A DNA stretch of 64,000 nt from Candidatus Giovannonibacteria bacterium (GTDB taxonomy: Bacteria > Patescibacteriota > Minisyncoccia > JACPKW01 > UBA11713): NCBI GenBank assembly GCA_016186825.1, contig JACPKW010000005.1, positions 66,025 through 130,024 on the forward strand. The letters run 5' to 3'. The position numbers were made by a program, and so were the translations under genes. The notes under the pieces were generated by a model, which saw nothing but the letters and a program-made list of their open reading frames with translations, did no database searches and was not told the origin of the DNA. Of the stretch, positions 3,237-57,275 are shown piece after piece. How positions within the stretch are numbered: position 1 is the first letter of the stretch; the number at the start of each line of letters is the position of its first letter.

Positions 3237-5156
3237 TTAGGGAGTAATTTCACGCACGCTCATTTTTTTATAGATGAGCCCATTCGTTCCAACATTGTCG
3301 CTTCTCCAATAAACGGAGATGTTAGGTTTTCCTGATTCTGTGCCGGGACGTGCGTCCGAATTCGTCAGACGGAGCGCCGGATCAATTCCGGATTTGCAAG
3401 CTGTTCCGCCAATGCCGAAGTTAGAACCATTATCAATCAACTCGTTTATTTTTCGCCATGTTCCGCCATTTGCGCCGTCGGTTTCATCGAGCCACAATTC
3501 GAGTTTTACATTTCCGTCCGGCATATCATAGACAACATATTTGTATCCGATCCAAACGCTTTTTGGAAGTCCGGAAGACCATTGCGTTTTATTTAATGTC
3601 GGGCGCGAATTCGGATGGCTTGTTTCTTTCTCGAAGTCGATATGTCCGTCATAGCGCATCCGCGCCCCGATTCCCCGTGTATCGCAAAGATTCGCGGTCT
3701 CGCTTCCGGTTATTCCGTGGTTCGTTCGCGCGATCCCAACGATTCCGCCGTAAGCCGTTCCTCTGTCGGCAATACGTTTTGCATAAACGGTCATCTCAAC
3801 ATTGCGCCAGCTTGAGACTTTTGCGGGATCATGAATGTACATCCGCGGAACGGATCCGGATATTTTGAAAAGACCTTGGCCATCCACGCTGTAGAACGCA
3901 TTGCCATGATTTGCATCAAACCAGGAATCGTAAGGATCAACGCCGGTGAAATTTCTTACAATACCGTTATCCCATTTCGATACCCATTCCTTCCCACCCG
4001 AAATGGTTGGATATAATCTTTTAATTCCGAATTTGTCTGTCGCAGTTGAAGTTACTGGTTCCGGAGCAGGCGCGGAAATCAGAGTTGCCACGGGAGTCAC
4101 GGAGATATTGCAGACCCAATGAGATCCGCTCGAAGCGTAGAGATTTATTTTTGAGAGACTCGTTACATTAGCCTGTTCCGTTCTGAAAGCATAACCTAGC
4201 CCGAGAGTTTTTTCAGTTGATCCGGGAGAGGTTACGTATATATCGTAGAGGTGATTAGGAATATCCACGACAAGACGAAACTTGTACGAATTTCCGGCAG
4301 AGTAACTTATAACTTGAGACGCTTTGTAGGTTGAGCCGGAGCGCGCATCAATTTTTCCTAAGTTGTTGAAGCGAACGATTGCAGCCATATCTGGATAATC
4401 AGAGACAACCCCGCTCGAAAGTCCTGTAACGCCGTCCATGTAATTTGATTTCGGGGTGCTGTCGAAAGTCAATACAAATTTTCCCGTTTGCGTAGAGATA
4501 GTGTTTGCTTGCCAGCTTGAAGCGCTCGAGACAGTGCATGAAGTTCCTGCATCACTCGAAACCAAAGCGAGCGAGGGATCCGAAACTGTCGAGACTGTTT
4601 GAGTAACTTCAGACCCAACCGCTAAATTGCAAACTGCATGGCCGCCGCTTGAAGCAAAGACATTTACTTTAGAAAGGCTCGTTATATTAGCTTGTTCCGT
4701 TCTGAATGAATAATCGAGGCCGACAGTTTTTTCATCCGAATTCGGCGGCGTAACATAAATGTCATAGAGATGATTTGCTAAATCAACTTCAAGACGGAAT
4801 TTATACGTGTTCCCCGCAAAATACGGGAGCGCATTTGCTGCGCCGTAGGTTGAGCCGGAACGCGCATCAATATTGCCGGAAGCGTTGAAACGCACAATCG
4901 CAGCGAGATCCGTGTAGTCGGAAGCGGGCAAATTCGATAATCCCGTAATGGCATCGATATTATTTGCGCTGGGAGTGGCGTCGAACACGACAGTAAATTT
5001 ACCCGTCTCGGTAGCAAAAGACTGCGCCTGCCAACTCGATTTGGAATCAAGACAGGAGTTATCCGCTGCGGATAATTTTTGATTTAGATTTGTGAAAGTG
5101 CTGAATAAAAGAATTAATGTTAATAATGATACAGATGATTTTTTTACGATTTCCAT
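3237..5156 (-). CDS. Secreted protein (639 aa). It has an N-terminal signal peptide, two tandem ~170-aa internal repeats and a C-terminal beta-jelly-roll/polysaccharide-lyase-like domain.
   Basis: Signal-like N-terminus [21 protein letters not shown]. Two near-identical repeats ([22 protein letters not shown]... and [22 protein letters not shown]...). C-terminal segment [13 protein letters not shown]...[11 protein letters not shown]. Confidence 0.55.
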
Positions 5157-11156: not shown

Positions 11157-11169
11157 AAATTTGATTTGT

Positions 11170-11211
11170 TACAATATCCTTAAAAACTGGAGTTTTTAAG
11201 GATATTGTAAT
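11170..11211. promoter_or_regulatory. Perfect 19-bp inverted repeat with a 5-nt spacer: TTACAATATCCTTAAAAAC-TGGAG-GTTTTTAAGGATATTGTAA. Candidate operator upstream of tspO.
   Basis: Seen directly in the sequence. It overlaps the 3' end of the ArsR ORF and lies 15-55 bp upstream of the tspO start. A half-site recurs at 11514-11541 and 13079-13105. Confidence 0.5.
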
Positions 11212-11492: not shown

Positions 11493-11513
11493 AGTTATAT
11501 TATATACAATACA

Positions 11514-11541
11514 CTTACATTCTCAAGTTTTTAAGGATGTC
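11514..11541. promoter_or_regulatory. Half-site copy of the tspO-upstream palindrome (ACATTCTCAAGTTTTTAAGGATGT), located upstream of the ArsR gene
   Basis: Shares GTTTTTAAGGAT with 11170-11211. Lies 20-50 bp upstream of the ArsR start. Confidence 0.4.
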
Positions 11542-13019: not shown

Positions 13020-13078
13020 AACTCCTTATTTTCTTTTTGAATCACTTTGACCATATTTTTGATTGTACACAATACCCC

Positions 13079-13105
13079 AACATTCTCAAGTTTATAAGGA
13101 TGTTA
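13079..13105. promoter_or_regulatory. Third copy of the ArsR-box-like motif (ACATTCTCAAGTTTATAAGGATGT), upstream of the TreT-like gene
   Basis: Lies 60-85 bp upstream of the minus-strand start at 13019. Confidence 0.4.
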
Positions 13106-13283: not shown

Positions 13284-13415
13284 CCCCGTTAGAAAATTCT
13301 TTTCTAACGGGGGTTCATTTCTCGCCAAAGCGTCCCGCCGTGGCGGGACGCGGAGCGAAGCCCAGCCCCGCTTGTAGCGGGGCTGGGCGACCTGCCTGCC
13401 GGCAAGGCAGGGCGA
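13284..13415. repeat. Cluster of four strong GC-rich hairpins, including the CCTGCCTGCCGGCAAGGCAGG member of a dispersed palindromic repeat family
   Basis: Perfect 13-bp hairpin CCCCGTTAGAAAA/TTTTCTAACGGGG. Also CGTCCCGCC-GTG-GCGGGACG, CCCAGCCCCGC-TTGTA-GCGGGGCTGGG and CCTGCCTGCCGGCAAGGCAGG. The last of these recurs at 56900-57030. Confidence 0.55.
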
Positions 13416-13440
13416 ACCCTCTCGTCTTCAAAAAATGAGT

Positions 13441-13660
13441 TCGTATCTAGTTTCTTGGCTCCATACCCTGAACGAAATCCGAACGCATTTTCAGGAAACC
13501 TCCGACGAATGAAGCCGCCCCGCCGCCGCTCGCTAACGCTCGCCAGCCAGCAAAAAAGTTTTCTCTGCATTTCTGATTTTGCGCGCGCCGGATTTCTCCC
13601 CCCAACCCCCTCCTGCCGAGCCGTCCTCACGGTTGGCGGTGGCGTTTATTTCTAAATTAT
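13441..13660. repeat. Left terminal inverted repeat (~200 bp) of the cassette; outer terminus TGGCTCCATACCCTGAACG
   Basis: Its reverse complement matches 19010-19265 almost exactly, apart from an ~85-nt insertion in the right copy. Confidence 0.8.
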
Positions 13661-15147
13661 AAAGTTTTATGAAGTGCCTGCCAAATTGAATACATCGCAT
13701 ACGTATCAAGCCCACAATATATTTTTAGATCGTTTATGGATTTCTCTTTTTGGGCGTCGTTAAAACCGCCACTTACGATTTTATTCCAAGTATCTGCGGC
13801 ACTTCCACCATCTCGTATTTCAAGCTCTTTGTATGATAATTCAGGAACTAAAACAGGCAAAATTCTTTTTATGGAAGTGCCGCCCCTAAAGTCTCGGTGT
13901 ATATGATATTGTTTTCTAAAAATATCTTCCAAGTCATACACGCGTCCTTTCAAGGAATCCATAAACGATTTCATTTCGGGAATTCTAATCGCAATCTCGT
14001 CGTTTCTTCCACACTCAAATCCTTTGTGCCAAACAATAATACTCCCAGTCGTACCCAAATGTTTTTGTAACGATTCAGCAAATGATTTACTCGGATCATC
14101 GGACGCAACGTGTAAAAACTCATAATGTTCCGGTTTGCTTTCCGGCGACTTCAAAACATCAACGGAATATTGGAACGGTATTTGATGGTAGGGGGAAAAC
14201 CCGTCAAATCTTGGAATTGCCGCTGGAAACGTTTCGTAATCTAAAAAATATAAGGGGAATGTTAAAGCATCAAACTCTGCTTTGATTTTTTCTTTTTCAA
14301 CCAAAACTTTATTCAGAATATATGTGTCAACCTGGCCCTGTTGAATATCGGTTAGCTTGATATGGGAAGGAATTTTATCGAGGTGAAAAATATTATTATC
14401 AATCAATTCCTTCAGTTTTGCTTTACTGTTTCCTATGCGCGCTATATCGTGGACGCTATATTCTGGAACTTCTGGATTTGAATGCTGAAAGGTTGAACAA
14501 TGCTTGGAGCGTCCTTTATAAACACAACAGCAATATCCGTTTGGTTTAGTCTCTTGAGAAAGATATTCAAGTGCCCCTTGCGATTCATTGGATACTTCTG
14601 TTGTTAAACTTTCAACTTCGCTAGTGACATCGACAATCTTAAATAAATTTTGAATGTCAAGATCATTCGTTCGCACATATTCCGAATTCAAATGTATTAT
14701 GTATGCCTTGTCGATTTGTAAACCATGCTTTCTTAGTAAGTTAACTTGAAAAGCTAGGTCGTGATAATGAGTTTTGTTATCTACGTCGCTTGTTGATTTT
14801 ATTTCGTATACAAAATAACCACCGCTCTCCGGATTAAACTTCAAAACATCTATTGCCGCCAAAAGATTACCACCAACAAAGACAGGTTGAAACAGGATTT
14901 CTTGATGCTTTGCAATGTAATCCTGCGTAACTTTTTGCCCTTCCTCATCTCGCCGTTCAATTAAAACGCCGCCTGGAAATAATTTCCGCGCTATCAATTC
15001 AACTTCATTACCTGTCTCCATGATGGACTTTTCAAATTCAGATAATTCAGATTCAGAATAAATGTCTGGTCTATGTATTTTATACCAGACATTTTGAGGG
15101 CATTCTCTATAAAGAATATAATCAGTTTTTGTAAGTGTAATAGTCAT
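13657..15147 (-). CDS. DUF2779-family protein: N-terminal Cas4/RecB-like PD-(D/E)xK nuclease with a Cys cluster plus a C-terminal DEDD (RNase H-like) exonuclease-like domain
   Basis: N-terminus TKTDYILYRECPQNVWYK (DUF2779-like). CCCVYKGRSKHCSTF cysteine cluster. YFLDYETFPAAIPRFDGFSPYHQIPFQYS (D-x-E) and YCGLDTYAMY at the C-terminus. Confidence 0.65.
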   Translation of the reverse strand: MTITLTKTDYILYRECPQNVWYKIHRPDIYSESELSEFEKSIMETGNEVELIARKLFPGGVLIERRDEEGQKVTQDYIAKHQEILFQPVFVGGNLLAAIDVLKFNPESGGYFVYEIKSTSDVDNKTHYHDLAFQVNLLRKHGLQIDKAYIIHLNSEYVRTNDLDIQNLFKIVDVTSEVESLTTEVSNESQGALEYLSQETKPNGYCCCVYKGRSKHCSTFQHSNPEVPEYSVHDIARIGNSKAKLKELIDNNIFHLDKIPSHIKLTDIQQGQVDTYILNKVLVEKEKIKAEFDALTFPLYFLDYETFPAAIPRFDGFSPYHQIPFQYSVDVLKSPESKPEHYEFLHVASDDPSKSFAESLQKHLGTTGSIIVWHKGFECGRNDEIAIRIPEMKSFMDSLKGRVYDLEDIFRKQYHIHRDFRGGTSIKRILPVLVPELSYKELEIRDGGSAADTWNKIVSGGFNDAQKEKSINDLKIYCGLDTYAMYSIWQALHKTL

Positions 15148-15148
15148 A

Positions 15149-18100
15149 TTAAGATTGTATCCATCCTTTATCTTCTAGCTTTCCAATGACAATGCGTCCG
15201 ATTGTCGCATTATCTTGAAATGAGTAGATCAATCCAGCATGGCGTGTTTTCAAGCCAATCCATGTTTTTACTTCTAGCGCAACCGCCAAATTTTTACCAT
15301 CAGGTGATAGCTCGGCCGCCTCAACTTTGCATTTTCCACCCTTTAGCGAAGCGGACACATAATCGTTTATCGTCTGCCATAACTCCGGCTTATCAGATTT
15401 TTTCCTTGTTCCATTCAAAAGATTGAATAACAAATCTAGATGAAATGGGGCTTGCGTGGAAATAAATTCTGAATATACAGGTACCCCTGTCAGCTCGCAA
15501 TCTTTTAGATCTTCGGGATGACATTTGCGACCACTCCACGAACAAGACCTTGCTTCCGAAGGAGAACAGAAATTCCCAATAATAGAACGAACGGCTTCAG
15601 TTTCAAGGAGGGGCGCACCAGACAAGTTGCTGAATATAAATTCTTGCTTATGGCCCGTCTTGCCAGAAACAACAGATTTTAGCTGTTCATCGTTTCGATA
15701 TTTTTTCCCCGATATTTGGCTAACTGCCAATTCACTTTCAAGAACTTCTGATTTAGTGAATTCACATATTCCAAAATATTGCGCTTCGGCACGCTTCCCA
15801 CTTAGAACCGATGTCTTTAAAAATTTTTTAGCAACCATCTCTCCGGTTACAGCTGATTTTTCCGCCTCATCAACCAAAACTCGCTTCTGGCTGAATGCAC
15901 AGAGAACAGTGTGCTCTGGATATGCGAACCGACTACTTATCTCCGATTGGACCAGAAAATGTCGAAGTGCAACTTGTTTAGTAATAGCGCATTGACCGAG
16001 ACAGTCGCGGGGTACTACCTTGCCGGATTTCATACATTTATCCATTTCAGGCGATATCACCTTTGTCGAAAAAGGAGTTATGGTCAATAGACTTCTATAT
16101 TCGCCGCCCTCATCAAATTTGTATGACACTCTTGTTTTCAAATCTCTATGAACGGTGCCTTCAAGACCAACCAATGAAATTTCTAATCTGGGAGTAAATT
16201 CGTCTTCAAGTTTTTTCTTTTTGCGTAGATCGTTACCCGCCGAGGCCATTTCCTGCTCTCTCCTCTCGGTATAAAAGCGACAGAAATCCAAAATATTTGG
16301 ATCTTGCATTGCTTTTTCTGCTAACTTTTTAGAAATTGCACCTATTGTCGTGGGGTTTTCTATTTGAGCACCTATCGGCTCAAGTCCAATCTTGGTAACA
16401 AAGTTGAAATGTTCTTCTGGAGAACATTCAACCTCAACCAATCGCTCATAACTATCATGAGCCACGGTTGCACGAACTCTTAACAACGCCTTACCTGCAA
16501 AATGCCTCGATACGTCTTGTATATCAATTTCTCTAAAATCTGCCCCGAAATTTTTGACCCAATCATTTGCAATTTTCTCGGCTCCCATGTGAGGATTTTG
16601 ATCGTTATCGTCCACGAGATGCAATCCGACATTTGTAACCTTACTCACAAGGCGTTCAAATACTGCCGTACCGGGAGCGTACAAAATACTTTCTTCTTTG
16701 CCGCTCAAGGTATTGTTATCAAATCGAATTAACTCTCTTTTTCCACCGAGATGCGACACGACCATATTGCCATCTTCCTTAAGTTTCGCACCAAAATCAG
16801 ATAGAGCAGTTAATACAAAAGTGCGAGCATCTATGGTGTGCTCTGTCTGCGGTAGTTTAGGACAGCGCGGACCAAAATCCTGCATGTCTCCCATACCGCC
16901 GAGAAGTGAATTAATGTTCTTTTCTTCTTTTTCTAGCTCTGATTTTGCGTTTTTTATACTTTCTTCGGCTTGCTTGGTTGCTCGCTCCACGTCCTTACCC
17001 GCTAGCGAAGCAACGACTAATTGTCTTATCTTCTCCTCAAAGCCACTCGATCCATTTTCCTCTCCCTCGTCGATTCCCGACGCTTCAAGCAGAGCCTCAA
17101 TGTCTCCGATTGCATGAGATGCCAACTGCAATTTTTCCATTAATCTGCCAACAATGTACTCCTCAAAAGTATTTTTTAAGACGATGTTAAAAATAGATAC
17201 GTTTTCAAAATTAGAAGACAATCGTTGAATACGACCGATACGTTGTTCAACGATCATCGGATTCCATGGTAAATCATAATTAACTAGAACGTTTGCGGCT
17301 TGTAGATTGATACCCTCTGAACCAGCTTCGGTTGATACAATAACGTGAATTTCGGGTAAATCCTTCTTAAACTTCGCAATAGTTTCTTGGTTCCTAGTAT
17401 TAGAATCACCGTTTATAAGTCCGCAAGAAATTTTTTCTTTTTCAAGAAAACTTTGTATTGCTGTTTGAGTTTCGCGCCATCGAGTGAACACAACTAACCG
17501 CCACGTGTCTGGTTGTTCCACTCTTAGTTTTTCAATCAAAGCACTAAGTCCTTTTAATTTTGTCGTTGTCTTAATGTCTTTCGCAATTTCTTTAACATCC
17601 TTTGCTAAAGATTTTGGCGCGGTATCCTTTTTCGCCATTCCTTCTAGTAGTTTAACTAGCGCCTCGGGGCTACTTACAAGTGCTTGTAAGATTACTATCT
17701 GCGAAAGGTAATTTAGTTCTTGGATTGGTTTCGCAATTACCCTGAAAAGATCTAACTCCTTTTCAGATGGTTCAACTTTATGCATCAGAACTTTTCTTTC
17801 AGGGAAGTGGAGCTTTGCGTCTCCTCTGCGCACACGAGACATATATCCATAGACAATCGAGCGAAATTCATCACGCATTTCCGGTTTAAGTTGGCGTGCA
17901 GTAGTCCGACTATCGGCTATAAATTTTCGAGCGAATGTACCTTGATTGCCAAAGGGATTTTCATGACCTCGTGCAACGGTTAATAAATCCACCAAGGAGT
18001 AAAGATCCCAGAGACGATTTTGTATTGGGGTAGCAGTTAGCATCAGAACATATTTGAATAACCTATCAGAAAGCGCCTTGCGAAATCTTTGTGCAACTTG

Positions 18101-18667
18101 TGGTGTAGGGTCAACGCCGTAAAGATTTCGCAGTTTGTGTGCCTCATCAAGTATCAGCATGTCGAAGCCGTCCTGTTTGATTCTATCGAGATACAATCTA
18201 GCGGTGTTATAAGTTGTTATCACTGCTCCCGTCTCCTCGGGAGGTTCTGCAGTGATAAGTTCTCTGCCGGTAACAATCACTGAAGGGATATCGAATTTAA
18301 CATCCAATTCCTCTTTCCACTGCTCGCGGAGTATTTTCGGGCAGACCACCAATATTTTCGAAATCCTTCCTCGTGAAATGAGTTCACTTACAACCAATCC
18401 GGCACTTATTGTTTTTCCAAGACCAACATCATCTGCCAACAAAGTGACCGGAAGACGACGGCAGAAAGAAATAAGATTTGTAACTTGATGATGGTAGGGC
18501 TCAACACGATCGCGCCATTTACTTTCCGATCGCATATCCTCCCTATCTTCAATAACGATAGGTTCAACCAAGTCCCACTCAAGAGCAGCCCGATACAAAC
18601 CATACTTTTCTGGAGTAGAAGCTCTCTTTAGTGTTCTTGTCTGAAATGGTAGCTGAGATAAATCCAT
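15149..18667 (-). CDS. SNF2/Swi2-family helicase (N-terminal ~530 aa) fused to an uncharacterised ~640-aa Cys-containing C-terminal region
   Basis: Motif I LADDVGLGKTI, motif II LILDEAHKLRN, motif III LTATPIQN, motif VI QRIGRIQR. The C-terminal half has no recognisable motifs. Confidence 0.85.
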   Translation of the reverse strand: MDLSQLPFQTRTLKRASTPEKYGLYRAALEWDLVEPIVIEDREDMRSESKWRDRVEPYHHQVTNLISFCRRLPVTLLADDVGLGKTISAGLVVSELISRGRISKILVVCPKILREQWKEELDVKFDIPSVIVTGRELITAEPPEETGAVITTYNTARLYLDRIKQDGFDMLILDEAHKLRNLYGVDPTPQVAQRFRKALSDRLFKYVLMLTATPIQNRLWDLYSLVDLLTVARGHENPFGNQGTFARKFIADSRTTARQLKPEMRDEFRSIVYGYMSRVRRGDAKLHFPERKVLMHKVEPSEKELDLFRVIAKPIQELNYLSQIVILQALVSSPEALVKLLEGMAKKDTAPKSLAKDVKEIAKDIKTTTKLKGLSALIEKLRVEQPDTWRLVVFTRWRETQTAIQSFLEKEKISCGLINGDSNTRNQETIAKFKKDLPEIHVIVSTEAGSEGINLQAANVLVNYDLPWNPMIVEQRIGRIQRLSSNFENVSIFNIVLKNTFEEYIVGRLMEKLQLASHAIGDIEALLEASGIDEGEENGSSGFEEKIRQLVVASLAGKDVERATKQAEESIKNAKSELEKEEKNINSLLGGMGDMQDFGPRCPKLPQTEHTIDARTFVLTALSDFGAKLKEDGNMVVSHLGGKRELIRFDNNTLSGKEESILYAPGTAVFERLVSKVTNVGLHLVDDNDQNPHMGAEKIANDWVKNFGADFREIDIQDVSRHFAGKALLRVRATVAHDSYERLVEVECSPEEHFNFVTKIGLEPIGAQIENPTTIGAISKKLAEKAMQDPNILDFCRFYTERREQEMASAGNDLRKKKKLEDEFTPRLEISLVGLEGTVHRDLKTRVSYKFDEGGEYRSLLTITPFSTKVISPEMDKCMKSGKVVPRDCLGQCAITKQVALRHFLVQSEISSRFAYPEHTVLCAFSQKRVLVDEAEKSAVTGEMVAKKFLKTSVLSGKRAEAQYFGICEFTKSEVLESELAVSQISGKKYRNDEQLKSVVSGKTGHKQEFIFSNLSGAPLLETEAVRSIIGNFCSPSEARSCSWSGRKCHPEDLKDCELTGVPVYSEFISTQAPFHLDLLFNLLNGTRKKSDKPELWQTINDYVSASLKGGKCKVEAAELSPDGKNLAVALEVKTWIGLKTRHAGLIYSFQDNATIGRIVIGKLEDKGWIQS

Positions 18668-18672
18668 AGTTA

Positions 18673-18873
18673 TTACAGCAATTCACTCGGTTTGACCCCA
18701 AGTGCTTTGGCCAATTTTTCAATATTTTTTAAAGCCATATTTCTGACCCCGCGCTCAATGCCGGAAATATAGGTTGGATGCACACCTAAAATCTTCGCGA
18801 GGTCTCCTTGCGACATCTTCTTCTGTAGACGCAACTCTTTTACTTTTTTGCCAAACTTAACGGAAATATCCAT
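18673..18873 (-). CDS. XRE-family (Cro/CI-type) HTH transcriptional regulator, first gene of the operon
   Basis: LRLQKKMSQGDLAKILGVHPTYISGIERG is a canonical XRE HTH. 66 aa. Its stop lies 6 bp from the SNF2 start. Confidence 0.85.
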   Translation of the reverse strand: MDISVKFGKKVKELRLQKKMSQGDLAKILGVHPTYISGIERGVRNMALKNIEKLAKALGVKPSELL

Positions 18874-18906
18874 AGTTTTTCCACTTTATCACATATTGCA
18901 ATATTT

Positions 18907-18932
18907 TTCTATATAGAATAATATTTCTATAT
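18907..18932. promoter_or_regulatory. Candidate operator/promoter of the XRE-SNF2-DUF2779 operon
   Basis: Perfect 12-bp palindrome TTCTATATAGAA followed by a direct repeat ATTTCTATAT, 35-60 bp upstream of the XRE start. Confidence 0.35.
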
Positions 18933-19009
18933 GAGTATCAATGGGAGTTCCAAAAACTTGTCCGCGCACTGGGAGGGTGGGGCAAGGACAAGAAAAGAAA
19001 TAAACGCCA

Positions 19010-19265
19010 CCGCCAACCGTGAGGACGGCTCGGCAGGAGGGGGTTGGGGGGAGGAATGCCGAGCCGTCCGAGCGAATAGAAAAGAGGCCAGCCCCGCCGC
19101 CTGCTCTGTTAGGAGCAGAAGCCAGCCAAAAAGTTTCGCAAAATCAGAAATGCAGAGAAAACTTTTTTGCTGGCTGGCGAGCGTTAGCGAGCGGCGGCGG
19201 GGCGGCTTCATTCGTCGGAGGTTTCCTGAAAATGCGTTCGGATTTCGTTCAGGGTATGGAGCCAA
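19010..19265. repeat. Right terminal inverted repeat of the cassette (copy of 13441-13660 with an ~85-nt insertion)
   Basis: Reverse-complement identity to the left TIR over about 200 nt. Ends in GGAGCCA. Confidence 0.8.
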
Positions 19266-19332
19266 ATTGTATGATACGAGTTCACCGCCTCGGGGCTTCG
19301 CCCCTCGGCGGGCACATCAGCAAGAATTTTCC
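19258..19332. repeat. 75-bp inverted repeat, left copy (GGAGCCAAATTGTATGATACGAG...CAGCAAGAATTTT), flanking the recombinase gene
   Basis: Identical in reverse complement to 20878-20952. Confidence 0.85.
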
Positions 19333-19479
19333 ACGACTTTTTGGGTTCAAAGCAAATCGCTTGCGAGCGCAAAACGTGGTTCGCCGCGCAAAGCGCGGAG
19401 TAAATGGAAATTTACAGCCAATTCTTTTTCTTCCGCCTTCGGCGGAAAGCAAAGCGATAATTTTTAGCCCAAAAGCGAT

Positions 19480-21000
19480 ATGAAATACTTTTTATACATC
19501 AGAAAATCAACGGACGAGGACGACAGACAAGTTTTGTCGCTGGAAGCGCAGGAAACGGAATTGAAAGAATTTGCCTTGCGGGAAAATCTTTTGATCGCCG
19601 CGACTTTCCGCGAATCGCAGACCGCCAAAGAGCCGGGCAGACCGATTTTTAACGATATGCTCAAACGAATGGAGCGCGGCGAGGCCGAGGGGATTTTAGC
19701 GTGGCATCCAGACCGATTGGCGAGAAACAGCATAGACGGCGGACGGATTATTTTCTTGGTAGACACTGAAAAAATCAGATCGCTAAAATCCCCGACATTT
19801 TGGTTTGAGCCGACCCCGCAAGGCAAATTCATGCTCAATATCGCTTTTGGGCAATCCAAATACTTTGTGGATAATCTTTCAGTGAATACCAAAAGAGGGT
19901 TGCGTCAAAAATTGCGCCGAGGCGAATTGCCCGGCTATGCGCCGCTTGGCTATTTGAACGACTTGCTAAAACACACAATCTACAAAGACCCCGAACGTTT
20001 TCGCCTCGTCCGCAAACTTTTTGAACTTTACGCAACCGGAAATTATTCTCTGAAAGATTTGCGGAAGTTGATAACTTCCGCCGGCTTGTTGAGCCGCAAA
20101 GGAAATATGCTTTCCGTCTCCAATATCCAAAATATACTCTCTACTTCATTTTATTATGGCGTATTCAAATACAATGGCGAACTCTACGACGGAAAGCATG
20201 AGCCAATGATTGCAAAGAAACTTTTTGAAGCGTGCCAAAAAGTGATGGCGGATCGTTCGCGCCCGAAAAAGCCGAGCCAAAAGGAATATCCGTTTAGAAA
20301 CTTGCTCAAGTGCGGCGAGTGCGGGTGCGCTATCACTTCCGAAACGCAAAAAGGACATAACTACTACCGCTGTACCAAAAAGAAAGACAAGCAATGTTCG
20401 CAAAAATATATCCGCGAGGAAGTTTTGGCACGCCAGATTTCGGACGAGATTCAAAAAGTTTCTTTGCCTCCCGCTTGGGCGGAGTGGATGTTAGCAGAAC
20501 TCAACAAGGAAGAAGCAGAAGCCGCCCAAGCGGGCGCCGTTTTCGCTCAAAATCTCAAAAACAAAATAAAAGAGCTTGAAGGAAAGCTCGACCTGCTTTT
20601 AGATGCACATTTAGCCAGCACTATTTCGCGCGAGGAATACACCGCCAAAAAAGAGAAATTGATAATTGAAAAGGCCGAGCTTTCCGAAAAATTGAAGGAT
20701 TTTGAGCGAAACGGCAATCATTGGCTCGAACCGGCCCGGCAATTCATTTTAGCGGCTCAACAAGCCAAAATTATCGCTTTGCAAGAAAATCCCGTCACGG
20801 GACGGGATTTTCTAAAAAGAATTGGCTCGAACCACGTTTTGCGCTCGCAAGCGATTTGCTTTGAACCCAAAAAGTCGTGGAAAATTCTTGCTGATGTGCC
20901 CGCCGAGGGGCGAAGCCCCGAGGCGGTGAACTCGTATCATACAATTTGGCTCCCCGGGCAGGATTCGAACCTGCGACCCACTCCTTACACTTATCCCTAA
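19480..21000 (+). CDS. Large serine recombinase (resolvase/invertase catalytic domain, recombinase domain, zinc ribbon and coiled-coil). The last ~40 codons read through the right IR and the tRNA 3' exon.
   Basis: YIRKSTDEDDRQ catalytic Ser motif. CGECGCAITSETQKGHNYYRC zinc ribbon. The ORF end overlaps 20878-20952 and tRNA 20947-20987. Confidence 0.85.
   Translation: MKYFLYIRKSTDEDDRQVLSLEAQETELKEFALRENLLIAATFRESQTAKEPGRPIFNDMLKRMERGEAEGILAWHPDRLARNSIDGGRIIFLVDTEKIRSLKSPTFWFEPTPQGKFMLNIAFGQSKYFVDNLSVNTKRGLRQKLRRGELPGYAPLGYLNDLLKHTIYKDPERFRLVRKLFELYATGNYSLKDLRKLITSAGLLSRKGNMLSVSNIQNILSTSFYYGVFKYNGELYDGKHEPMIAKKLFEACQKVMADRSRPKKPSQKEYPFRNLLKCGECGCAITSETQKGHNYYRCTKKKDKQCSQKYIREEVLARQISDEIQKVSLPPAWAEWMLAELNKEEAEAAQAGAVFAQNLKNKIKELEGKLDLLLDAHLASTISREEYTAKKEKLIIEKAELSEKLKDFERNGNHWLEPARQFILAAQQAKIIALQENPVTGRDFLKRIGSNHVLRSQAICFEPKKSWKILADVPAEGRSPEAVNSYHTIWLPGQDSNLRPTPYTYP
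20878..20952. repeat. 75-bp inverted repeat, right copy. It overlaps the 3' end of the intron-containing tRNA.
   Basis: Reverse complement of 19258-19332. Confidence 0.85.
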
Positions 21001-21271
21001 GTTTCCTTGGGGGGTGGACTATATCATCATCCCTGTTTTTGGATGCGAGGCGCTTCGACCGTCGCTTGTGACGGGCTACTCTCTTTCGAGATAGTCTCTG
21101 AACCTTCCTTCATCTTGCTTCGCAATCCGAAGCTTTAGCGAAAGATTGGCTGCGGATTACCTTAGAAAAATTCTTTAGGCTTCCCGCAATTCACCTCGTT
21201 TTTCAACCGGAATTACTTCCGGAAGCTGCCATTTTTGACAGGGAGTCGCTCTACCGCTGAGCTACCGGGGA
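20947..21271 (-). tRNA. tRNA, best read as Asn(GUU), interrupted by a ~250-nt group I-like intron in the anticodon loop. Exons 21238-21271 and 20947-20987; intron 20988-21237; CCA encoded. Asp(GUC) is the alternative if the boundaries are shifted.
   Basis: 5' exon TCCCCGGTAGCTCAGCGGTAGAGCGACTCCCTGT. 3' exon TAAGGAGTGGGTCGCAGGTTCGAATCCTGCCCGGGGAGCCA, giving a perfect cloverleaf. The intron follows a U and ends in G, and contains P7-like CAGAGACTA ... ATATAGTCC elements. Confidence 0.65.
20988..21237 (-). other. Putative group I self-splicing intron within the tRNA anticodon loop (no ORF)
   Basis: Lies between anticodon positions 35 and 36. Contains GACUA/UAGUC P7-like motifs. Boundaries are a 5' U and a terminal G. 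Confidence 0.5.
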
Positions 21272-56877: not shown

Positions 56878-57078
56878 GCTGGGCGAGTGGCGGAATCGGC
56901 AGACCTGCCTGCCGGCAGGCAGGCGCGCTGGTCCACCCTGTTAGAAATTTTAATAAATGAAATATTTATTCAGTCTGGTGCTGGGATGGCGGAATCGGCA
57001 GACCTGCCTGCCGGCAGGCAGGCGCGCTGGTCCACCCTGTTAGAAATTTTAATAAATGAAATATTTATTCAATCTGGT
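56878..57078. repeat. Two tandem ~100-nt direct repeats, each beginning with the first ~24 nt of tRNA-Leu (GCTGGGATGGCGGAATCGGCAGAC) followed by the GC palindrome CCTGCCTGCCGGCAGGCAGG and an AT-rich hairpin
   Basis: Units at 56878-56979 and 56980-57078 differ by a 3-nt indel and one substitution. The third repeat start is the real tRNA at 57079. Confidence 0.85.
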
Positions 57079-57162
57079 GCTGGGATGGCGGAATCGGCAG
57101 ACGCGCACGCTTCAGGAGCGTGTAGGAGAAATCCTGTGGGAGTTCAAATCTCCCTCCCAGCA
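57079..57162 (+). tRNA. tRNA-Leu(CAG), type II; CCA not encoded
   Basis: GCTGGGA-TG-GCG-GAATCGGCAGA-CGC-G-CACGC-TTCAGGA-GCGTG-TAGGAGAAATCCTGT-GGGAG-TTCAAAT-CTCCC-TCCCAGC-A. Discriminator is A73. Confidence 0.85.
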
Positions 57163-57275
57163 CAGGGTTTATCGATTTCTAGCGGGGCAAGGAAGCCAGT
57201 GGGAGCAATCTCGTGGAGGTTCAAATCCTCTCTCGCCCGCCTTTAAAAACTAATTATCAGCATTAATATAATAAA

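Follow-up and report, generated by a model that had tools for sequence, protein, structure and literature searches.

Recurrent pairing of a repeat-bearing SNF2 ATPase with a DUF2779 dual nuclease in a candidate defence cassette from Candidatus Giovannonibacteria

Systems that combine a nucleoside triphosphate-driven motor with nucleases include the closest described counterparts of the locus reported here. In Zorya, ZorD is an SNF2 protein fused to an Mrr nuclease, and in MrfAB a helicase acts together with a DEDDh exonuclease in the removal of mitomycin adducts. With regard to the nuclease, Majorek et al. placed PF11074 (DUF2779) in a 3'-5' exonuclease clade in 2014 and noted its co-occurrence with DUF83/Cas4 (PMC3985635), and a 2026 analysis of MMSYN1_0389 from JCVI-syn3.0 predicted the same active dual nuclease (PMC13621843). 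The Cas4-like PD-(D/E)xK plus DEDD architecture of DUF2779 is therefore already in print and is not new. The present analysis concerns a DUF2779 gene and its operon within a stretch of 64,000 nucleotides (nt) from a Candidatus Giovannonibacteria bacterium of the Patescibacteria (assembly GCA_016186825.1, contig JACPKW010000005.1, positions 66,025 to 130,024), hereafter the window. As a member of a known, uncharacterised family with an architecture predicted earlier, the encoded protein is ordinary; the new part is its conserved pairing with an SNF2 protein that carries a module of 15-residue repeats.

Three co-directional genes on the reverse strand of the window form a compact operon in the order helix-turn-helix (HTH) regulator, SNF2 and DUF2779, with the nuclease gene last. 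They encode an XRE/HTH_3 regulator of 66 amino acids (aa) (18673..18873; PF01381, E 2.5e-18), an SNF2-family ATPase of 1172 aa (15149..18667; PF00176, E 5.9e-29; PF00271, E 4.8e-20) and the DUF2779 dual nuclease of 496 aa (13657..15147). The spacers measure 5 nt between HTH and SNF2 and 1 nt between SNF2 and DUF2779, where the TAA of SNF2 is separated from the ATG of the nuclease by a single base. An earlier note on this DNA, made from the sequence alone, had described the nuclease as translationally coupled to an SNF2 helicase. The partnership proved to be real and recurrent, the spacing is compatible with coupling, and the third gene of the operon, encoding the 66-aa HTH protein, had been overlooked.

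Evidence for the pairing came from a DUF2779-based survey of 80 genome loci, supplemented by two loci from separate look-ups (L002 and L085), and from a reciprocal survey of 80 metagenome loci, 78 of them scored, that was based on the C-terminal module of the SNF2 protein (C-module). An SNF2 gene with the C-module lies upstream of an adjacent DUF2779 gene at L002, L005 and L085, and the opposite order, with the nuclease first and SNF2 with the C-module downstream, occurs at L049 and at three Terriglobales loci (L070-L072). In the metagenome set, a nuclease of DUF2779 or TM0106 type adjoins SNF2 in 31 of the 78 loci, a figure that becomes 18 of 28 where both flanks are visible; some of the pairs are convergent, and the intergenic distance lies between -16 and a few hundred nt. 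On a neighbour-joining tree, SNF2-linked DUF2779 genes fall into at least five separate lineages, the basal ones being inflated by ascertainment through the SNF2 search. The TM0106-type partner is a protein of about 504 aa containing PDDEXK_1 and RNase_H_2 (TIGR03491), and the SNF2-linked C0 cluster scores 222.6 against the TIGR03491 cut-off of 97.45. When the two types of partner were aligned over their full length with hhalign (probability 86%, E 4.9e-6), all catalytic and Cys positions were found to match. Because adjacency is kept across lineages, across gene orders and through the exchange of one sister family for another, we argue that SNF2 and the dual nuclease would constitute a functional, non-obligatory pair. 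Searches of the accessible literature turned up no paper that links SNF2 with DUF2779 or TM0106, and the pairing was likewise not found in PADLOC 2023.

The open reading frame (ORF) of the nuclease contains all three peptides quoted in the earlier note (TKTDYILYRECPQNVWYK, CCCVYKGRSKHCSTF and YFLDYETFPAAIPRFDGFSPYHQIPFQYS), and the assignment to DUF2779 made there was borne out by a Pfam search, in which PF11074 matched aa 300-425 over its full model (1-126) above the gathering threshold (129.5 bits against a cut-off of 23.3, E 1.1e-37). The same family was matched by 30 of 30 aligned homologues, and an identical NCBI entry bears the title 'DUF2779 domain-containing protein [Candidatus Giovannonibacteria bacterium]'. 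The cut-off of the UU173 family (NF045869) is not reached by the window protein (65.4 bits against 225), and the NCBIfam scan gave no match to TIGR03491, the TM0106 family. A PDB sequence search with the single protein detected nothing similar, and the sole PDB match of the A1 profile, ribosomal S8, was judged spurious. That DUF2779 has no assigned function, as the note had put it, is true in the experimental sense; its Cas4-like plus DEDD architecture had already been published.

The two-nuclease organisation proposed in the same note was upheld by Cas4-like fold matches, invariant motifs, the profile alignment with TM0106 and published classification (PMC3985635, PMC13621843). The N-terminal Cas4-like PD-(D/E)xK domain spans aa 1 to about 235 (14443..15147, reverse strand). 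In a conservation alignment of 30 homologues with 58-86% identity, the D..ExK residues D100, E115 and K117 as well as Q134 are invariant. So are the Cys residues C16, C206, C208 and C217, and C207 varies among C, S, D, A and L. A cluster of four Cys had been anticipated and four are indeed conserved, although the set is C16 + C206 + C208 + C217 and not the uninterrupted CCC...C run that had been proposed. Since C207 varies, the cluster ligands follow the Cas4/AddB pattern of one N-terminal and three C-terminal Cys, and the domain probably binds an iron-sulfur (Fe-S) cluster. An AlphaFold 2 (AF2) model of the protein built with 30 homologues reached a mean predicted local distance difference test score (pLDDT) of 85.3 and a predicted template modelling score (pTM) of 0.80, with the Cys-rich loop at aa 204-233 as its only low-pLDDT stretch. 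Foldseek comparison of the N-terminal domain with the PDB returned Cas4 Pcal_0546, Cas4-Cas1, MGME1, the Argonaute-associated Cas4 protein ACE1, Dna2 and AdnAB (E 1.5e-4 to 1e-2, probability about 1.0). Cas4 profiles respond weakly to this half of the protein (PF01930, 20.7 bits against 22.7; TIGR00372, 20.8 against 65), and PADLOC matches it to Cas4 at 2e-07. A Cas4-like fold is thus well supported for the modelled N-terminal domain.

The C-terminal domain, a putative RNase H-like DEDDy exonuclease, covers aa ~296-496 (13660..14262, reverse strand) and includes the PF11074 match. Among the 30 homologues, D303 and E305 (FLDYET), E378 (WHKGFE), D405, and Y477 and D481 (YCGLD) are invariant. Conservation of the catalytic residues, the lack of which in orthologues the note would have taken as refutation, extends to D100, E115, K117, D303, E305, E378, D481 and Y477. 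Foldseek matches are weaker here than for the N-terminal domain and comprise MAEL, 3'hExo, oligoribonuclease (ORN), RNase T and ERI2. Together with the hhalign correspondence to TM0106, the motifs and these fainter fold matches hint that the domain may be a DEDDy 3'-5' exonuclease. The structure prediction thus returned a Cas4-like N-terminal domain and, less distinctly, DEDD relatives for the C-terminal one. In a DUF2779 homologue, the C-terminal domain was found nearest to MrfB by HHpred (PMC13621843).

The partner retains intact SNF2 ATPase motifs (GLGKT at aa 82, DEAH at 174, TATP at 211 and QRIGR at 475), and its core resembles those of DrmD, BrxH, HmaA, ZorD, DpdE and RapA. Scores against the corresponding equivalog models stay far below the cut-offs (DrmD 208.9/610, DpdE 179.6/500, ZorD 67.6/1500, RapA 121.8/576), and no DrmA/B/C, ZorA/B/C or Dpd genes appear in the ORF and Pfam listing of the cassette. 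Identities as DISARM, Zorya, Dpd, a BREX helicase, Hma or RapA were rejected on account of these low scores and the absence of the partner genes. Pfam covers only aa 75-483, so that the C-module of about 570 aa (aa 601-1172; 15152..16867, reverse strand) has no Pfam match; Foldseek found no PDB fold relative for it at E<=1e-3. Its AF2 model (pLDDT 85, pTM 0.49) contains, besides domains of mixed alpha/beta structure, an extended array of short beta-hairpins. Phased listing of aa 878-1072 (15452..16036, reverse strand) reveals 13 tandem 15-residue repeats of the form [C/S]xx[S/T]G[K/R].., for which the autocorrelation is highest at lag 15 (0.29, background about 0.13), and in the model these repeats are predicted to form stacked beta-hairpins. 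An exhaustive phmmer search gathered 596 cluster representatives of the C-module family at 50% identity, 233 of them at E<=1e-30. Most of these relatives are 1200-2100 aa long, and the module mostly starts near residue 570, as in the window protein. Relatives of 1900-2100 aa match the query C-module in up to nine separate stretches and probably carry longer repeat arrays. Within the context of P0142, P0168 and P0178, only truncated or transposon-disrupted SNF2 genes were seen. At a further locus (L169, contig_11041, 1.62 Mb), a 765-aa remnant of an SNF2 C-module adjoins a phage integrase and lies downstream of Wadjet-like JetC/JetD and Fic, an instance of the family disrupted within a defence island.

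The regulator that opens the operon resembles the controller (C) proteins of restriction-modification (R-M) systems (PADLOC Control_protein, 1.4e-23); XRE HTH domains are generic. Directly upstream of its gene lies an imperfect palindrome (18892..18933; inverted repeat I8, with 24-nt arms that are 88% complementary), which is possibly an operator or promoter region. A promoter and terminator scan of the cassette gave nothing above the shuffled expectation. No cas genes were matched among the flanking genes scanned, the neighbours being SNF2, HTH, a glycosyltransferase and a serine recombinase.

The genomic setting of the cassette and of its relatives bears on function. The cassette sits within a 7.5-kb island that contains a large serine recombinase and lies next to an intron-containing tRNA, and its GC content at third codon positions (GC3) is low (0.32 in DUF2779 and 0.35 in SNF2, against 0.40-0.52 in neighbouring genes); the island is horizontally acquired. 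The closest relatives of the nuclease (>=65% identity) cross phyla, being found in Omnitrophota, Margulisiibacteriota, Planctomycetota and Chlamydiia, and they reside in variable or defence regions. Their neighbours are AbiEi/AbiEii and Bro-N at one locus; type III R-M-like genes (HTH, N6/N4 methyltransferase, ResIII) plus AAA_21 at another; a 1900-aa DUF4011-AAA_11/12-MTES_1575 helicase-nuclease, NYN and a serine recombinase at a third; HsdR, GmrSD, PIN-TPR and DUF87 at a fourth; and Gabija-like genes, Vsr, RE_EcoO109I and Dcm at a fifth. Plasmid-borne homologues adjoin DEAD/DEAH helicases, ATP-binding proteins, PLD nucleases and WYL regulators. These defence-linked contexts are anecdotal. 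No homologue was found in 50,697 phage records, and a phage-encoded recombination exonuclease was ruled out on that ground. As a separate observation, DUF2779 repeatedly has a second type of neighbour, the giant superfamily 1 (SF1) helicase-nuclease (DUF4011-AAA_11/AAA_12-MTES_1575, 1600-1900 aa), found also beside the closest relatives of the window protein (L006, L007, L013, L018, L019, L043, L077, L078 and L086). SF1 fusions have reportedly been described for COG2251, a parallel to this adjacency.

Given an island with a serine recombinase and relatives located in defence islands, defence against invading DNA is the most likely role, and we put the chances that the operon is a helicase-nuclease defence module against phage or plasmids at about even. 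In such a module, the SNF2 motor would engage target DNA, perhaps via its C-terminal array of 15-residue repeats, would then translocate along it with ATP, and would deliver or expose the DNA to the partner nuclease. There, a 5'-3' Fe-S PD-(D/E)xK site and a 3'-5' DEDDy site could attack strands of opposite polarity, so that both strands would be degradable, and the C-protein-like HTH regulator may limit the expression of a potentially self-toxic nuclease. A physical complex of SNF2 and DUF2779, the strand polarities, the target and the protective phenotype are parts of this scheme that we infer. The broader proposal is offered tentatively, at somewhat less than even chances: HTH, SNF2 and dual nuclease would together make up an undescribed, widespread system of phage or plasmid defence, with the repeat-array SNF2 protein as sensor and motor and with DUF2779 and TM0106 as interchangeable Cas4 + DEDDy effectors.

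Several observations weigh against a defence module of this kind. SNF2 enzymes are translocases of double-stranded DNA, and unwinding by them is unproven. Foldseek supports the DEDD fold weakly (E 0.01-0.15), and a literature search found no experimental activity for any DUF2779 protein. PADLOC matched neither protein to a system beyond the generic Cas4 and SNF2 cores, and no methyltransferase or other evident discriminator of self from non-self is present in the cassette. At about a third of the fully visible SNF2 loci the nuclease is absent, and some of these loci carry GmrSD. In addition, most DUF2779 orthologues of Patescibacteria (<=60% identity) are found without a helicase in neighbourhoods of housekeeping appearance, typically containing HisRS, a small RNase_H_2 exonuclease, a DsbA-like thioredoxin, DUF2779, an RNase T/ExoX-like exonuclease and RpoD/DnaG, and the Mycoplasma homologue MMSYN1_0389 is quasi-essential (PMC13621843). 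Given the housekeeping orthologues and this quasi-essential homologue, the family is not defence-only and has at least two lifestyles. Independently of this question, three predicted exonucleases stand in a row at L012, L029, L036, L042, L054, L057, L060, L062-L064, L067, L068 and L074.

The main rival reading is a pair for repair or recombination, comparable to MrfAB or to end resection by AddAB/Dna2, that would act on the host chromosome and not on invaders. Such a role would accommodate the many orthologues of the Candidate Phyla Radiation (CPR) located beside dnaG, rpoD and other exonucleases, the cell-culture phenotype reported in the literature for a transposon mutant of Mycoplasma bovis, and the presence of the repair nucleases MGME1, Dna2 and AdnAB among the fold matches, as well as the quasi-essential Mycoplasma homologue and the proximity of a homologue's C-terminal domain to MrfB by HHpred (PMC13621843). 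It fits the window copy less well: this copy and its relatives of >=65% identity lie on islands alongside serine recombinases and defence genes and not in a housekeeping context, they are sporadically distributed and cross phyla at high identity, the GC3 of the cassette is low, and a C-protein-like regulator opens the operon. For the cassette itself, a repair function is regarded as unlikely.

The structure of the island bears on a different possibility, namely that the cassette serves the mobile element, for example through the processing of its DNA when it excises or replicates, or as a counter to the defences of the host, rather than host immunity. The large serine recombinase (19480..21000, forward strand; PF00239, PF07508, PF13408) is flanked by perfect 126-nt inverted repeats (19258-19383 and 20828-20953), and the repeat encodes recombinase aa 449-491. 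The island abuts the 3' end of a tRNA-Thr(UGU) gene (20947..21271, reverse strand) that is interrupted in its anticodon loop by a 250-nt group I intron (Rfam RF00028, 89 bits); the predicted recombinase ORF runs antisense into this tRNA gene. Default ARAGORN missed the split tRNA, which was called only with the intron option. An initial identification as Asp(GUC) was replaced by the Thr(UGU) call of ARAGORN, with which the last base of the 5' exon is U and that of the intron is G, in keeping with the requirement of group I introns. The 8-mer GGAGCCAA, which is the 3' end of the tRNA, marks junctions at 13455-13462, 19258-19265 and 20946-20953, with flanks of A|core|X, A|core|C and tRNA|core|C, respectively; these look like an attR, an inverted internal attP-like copy and an attL.

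The cassette, in turn, lies between two inverted-repeat arms. The left arm (13455..13653) consists of segment A (129 nt) and segment B (69 nt) and starts with the 8-mer TTGGCTCC, and the right arm (18996..19265) consists of B', a 71-nt insertion and A' and ends with GGAGCCAA. The 129-nt pair is 100% identical and the adjoining 69-nt pair 94%, with the 71-nt indel between the arms. An independent Logan unitig (L001) corresponds exactly to the cassette and carries the inner 30 nt at both ends, inversely oriented; as this 30-mer is the same, the inner inverted repeat is not confined to a single assembly. Flanking inverted repeats were seen in none of the six homologous cassettes examined, and they are specific to the genome from which the window comes. 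The repeat structure may reflect an inversion, nested elements, or an assembly path through integrated and excised forms. The A/B repeats contain no tRNA or tmRNA that ARAGORN recognises.

A mobile-element role draws on these perfect repeats around the cassette, on its position between att-like junctions next to the recombinase and on the recurrence of serine recombinases near close homologues. It is considered improbable, as flanking repeats are missing from homologous cassettes elsewhere, most SNF2-nuclease pairs have no recombinase with them, no homologue is found in phage genomes, and defence genes are commonly island cargo. Mere co-residence of an independent SNF2 protein and a stand-alone DUF2779 nuclease in variable or defence islands, which might be suggested by DUF2779 genes beside an SF1-MTES_1575 helicase, AAA_21, DUF87 or HsdR, or alone, and by SNF2 genes without a nuclease or next to GmrSD, is likewise improbable in view of spacers of 1 to about 30 nt or overlapping genes and of pairing in both gene orders, in at least five DUF2779 lineages and with the sister family TM0106. 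For two families that are both rare, adjacency at 18 of the 28 loci with both flanks visible also far exceeds what chance would give.

The nuclease families DUF2779 and TM0106 are both large and uncharacterised, and JCVI-syn3.0 has one member that is quasi-essential. The SNF2 partnership supplies a concrete, testable hypothesis for them, that of a machine of helicase and nuclease in which each strand polarity has a nuclease of its own, and the compact three-gene cassette of 5.3 kb is available for cloning. Should the undescribed defence system be real, it would provide the first functional assignment for both orphan families. A protective cassette would add to the helicase-nuclease defence systems a new one that is common among bacteria of soil and groundwater, CPR organisms included, about whose immunity little is known; it would also establish the repeat array as a new domain of SNF2 proteins. 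Were the pair instead a repair module, the retention of DUF2779 in minimal genomes would be explained.

Other features of the window were recorded in passing. Between the glycosyltransferase gene and the island lies a cluster of GC-rich hairpins (13284-13420), among them CCCCGTTAGAAAAT..CTAACGGGG, GTCCCGCCGTGGCGGGAC, GCCCAGCCCCGC..GCGGGGCTGGGC and CCTGCCTGCCGGCAAGGCAGG; Rfam matches in the left flank were only spurious matches to GC hairpins and were discarded. The CCTGCCTGCCGGCAGGCAGG hairpin of the cluster recurs in tRNA-Leu repeats at 56905-56924. There, at 56881-57163, the first ~24 nt of tRNA-Leu(CAG) (GCTGGGATGGCGGAATCGGCAGAC), a GC hairpin and an AT-rich spacer make up two 99-nt tandem units, which are 99% identical, lie directly upstream of the intact tRNA-Leu gene and could be integration scars or partial duplications. 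A 42-nt motif (ATTnTAnACAATAC..CTCAAGTTTnTAAGGATGT, 74-86% identical) occurs in intergenic regions at 11164-11205, 11499-11540 and 13062-13103, upstream of TspO-like, ArsR-like and trehalose-synthase-like glycosyltransferase genes, and may be a shared promoter or operator. Inside the ORF at 3237..5156 (reverse strand, 639 aa), direct repeats recur at 4107-4922 with a period of 519 nt (198 nt at 72% and 78 nt at 76%), which indicate a duplicated domain in the protein.

Among known helicase-nuclease defence modules, ZorD of Zorya, DrmD of DISARM, HamAB of Hachiman and GajAB of Gabija share with the cassette the logic of a motor driven by nucleoside triphosphates plus a PD-(D/E)xK-type nuclease in a defence-island setting; unlike them, the window operon has its nuclease as a separate dual-domain protein and an SNF2 protein with a unique module of 15-residue repeats, and it lacks the other components of those systems. 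AddAB/RecBCD and MrfAB likewise couple a motor to nucleases for opposite polarities, with an AddB-like Fe-S PD-(D/E)xK domain and an MrfB-like DEDD domain as the corresponding parts. Their motors, however, are UvrD-like SF1 or DEXH enzymes, whereas that of the window is SNF2, a member of superfamily 2; moreover, both nuclease domains of the window reside in one small protein whose distribution is sporadic and island-borne. The best fold matches are Cas4 proteins (Pcal_0546, Cas4-Cas1 and ACE1), which share the D-ExK residues, a QxxxY-like Q134 and the 1+3 Cys arrangement. The window protein differs from Cas4 in possessing an extra exonuclease domain, in scoring below the profile cut-offs and in having no cas genes nearby, and its partner is an SNF2 ATPase, in contrast to the Cas1/Cas2 or Argonaute partners of Cas4. 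In described members of PF11074 such as MMSYN1_0389 and the UU173 family, the same fusion of Cas4-like PD-(D/E)xK and DEDDy domains is predicted, with D..ExK, the DEDD acidic residues and the Tyr conserved. Those proteins are about 650 aa long compared with 496 aa, MMSYN1_0389 of Mycoplasma mycoides retains two Cys ligands where the window protein keeps four, and their housekeeping context contrasts with the SNF2 operon on an island. Finally, TM0106 (TIGR03491; COG2251; RecB-like putative nuclease) belongs to Pfam and NCBIfam families different from those of DUF2779 and is related to it only at the profile level, yet it has the same two domains in about 500 aa and partners the same SNF2 family.

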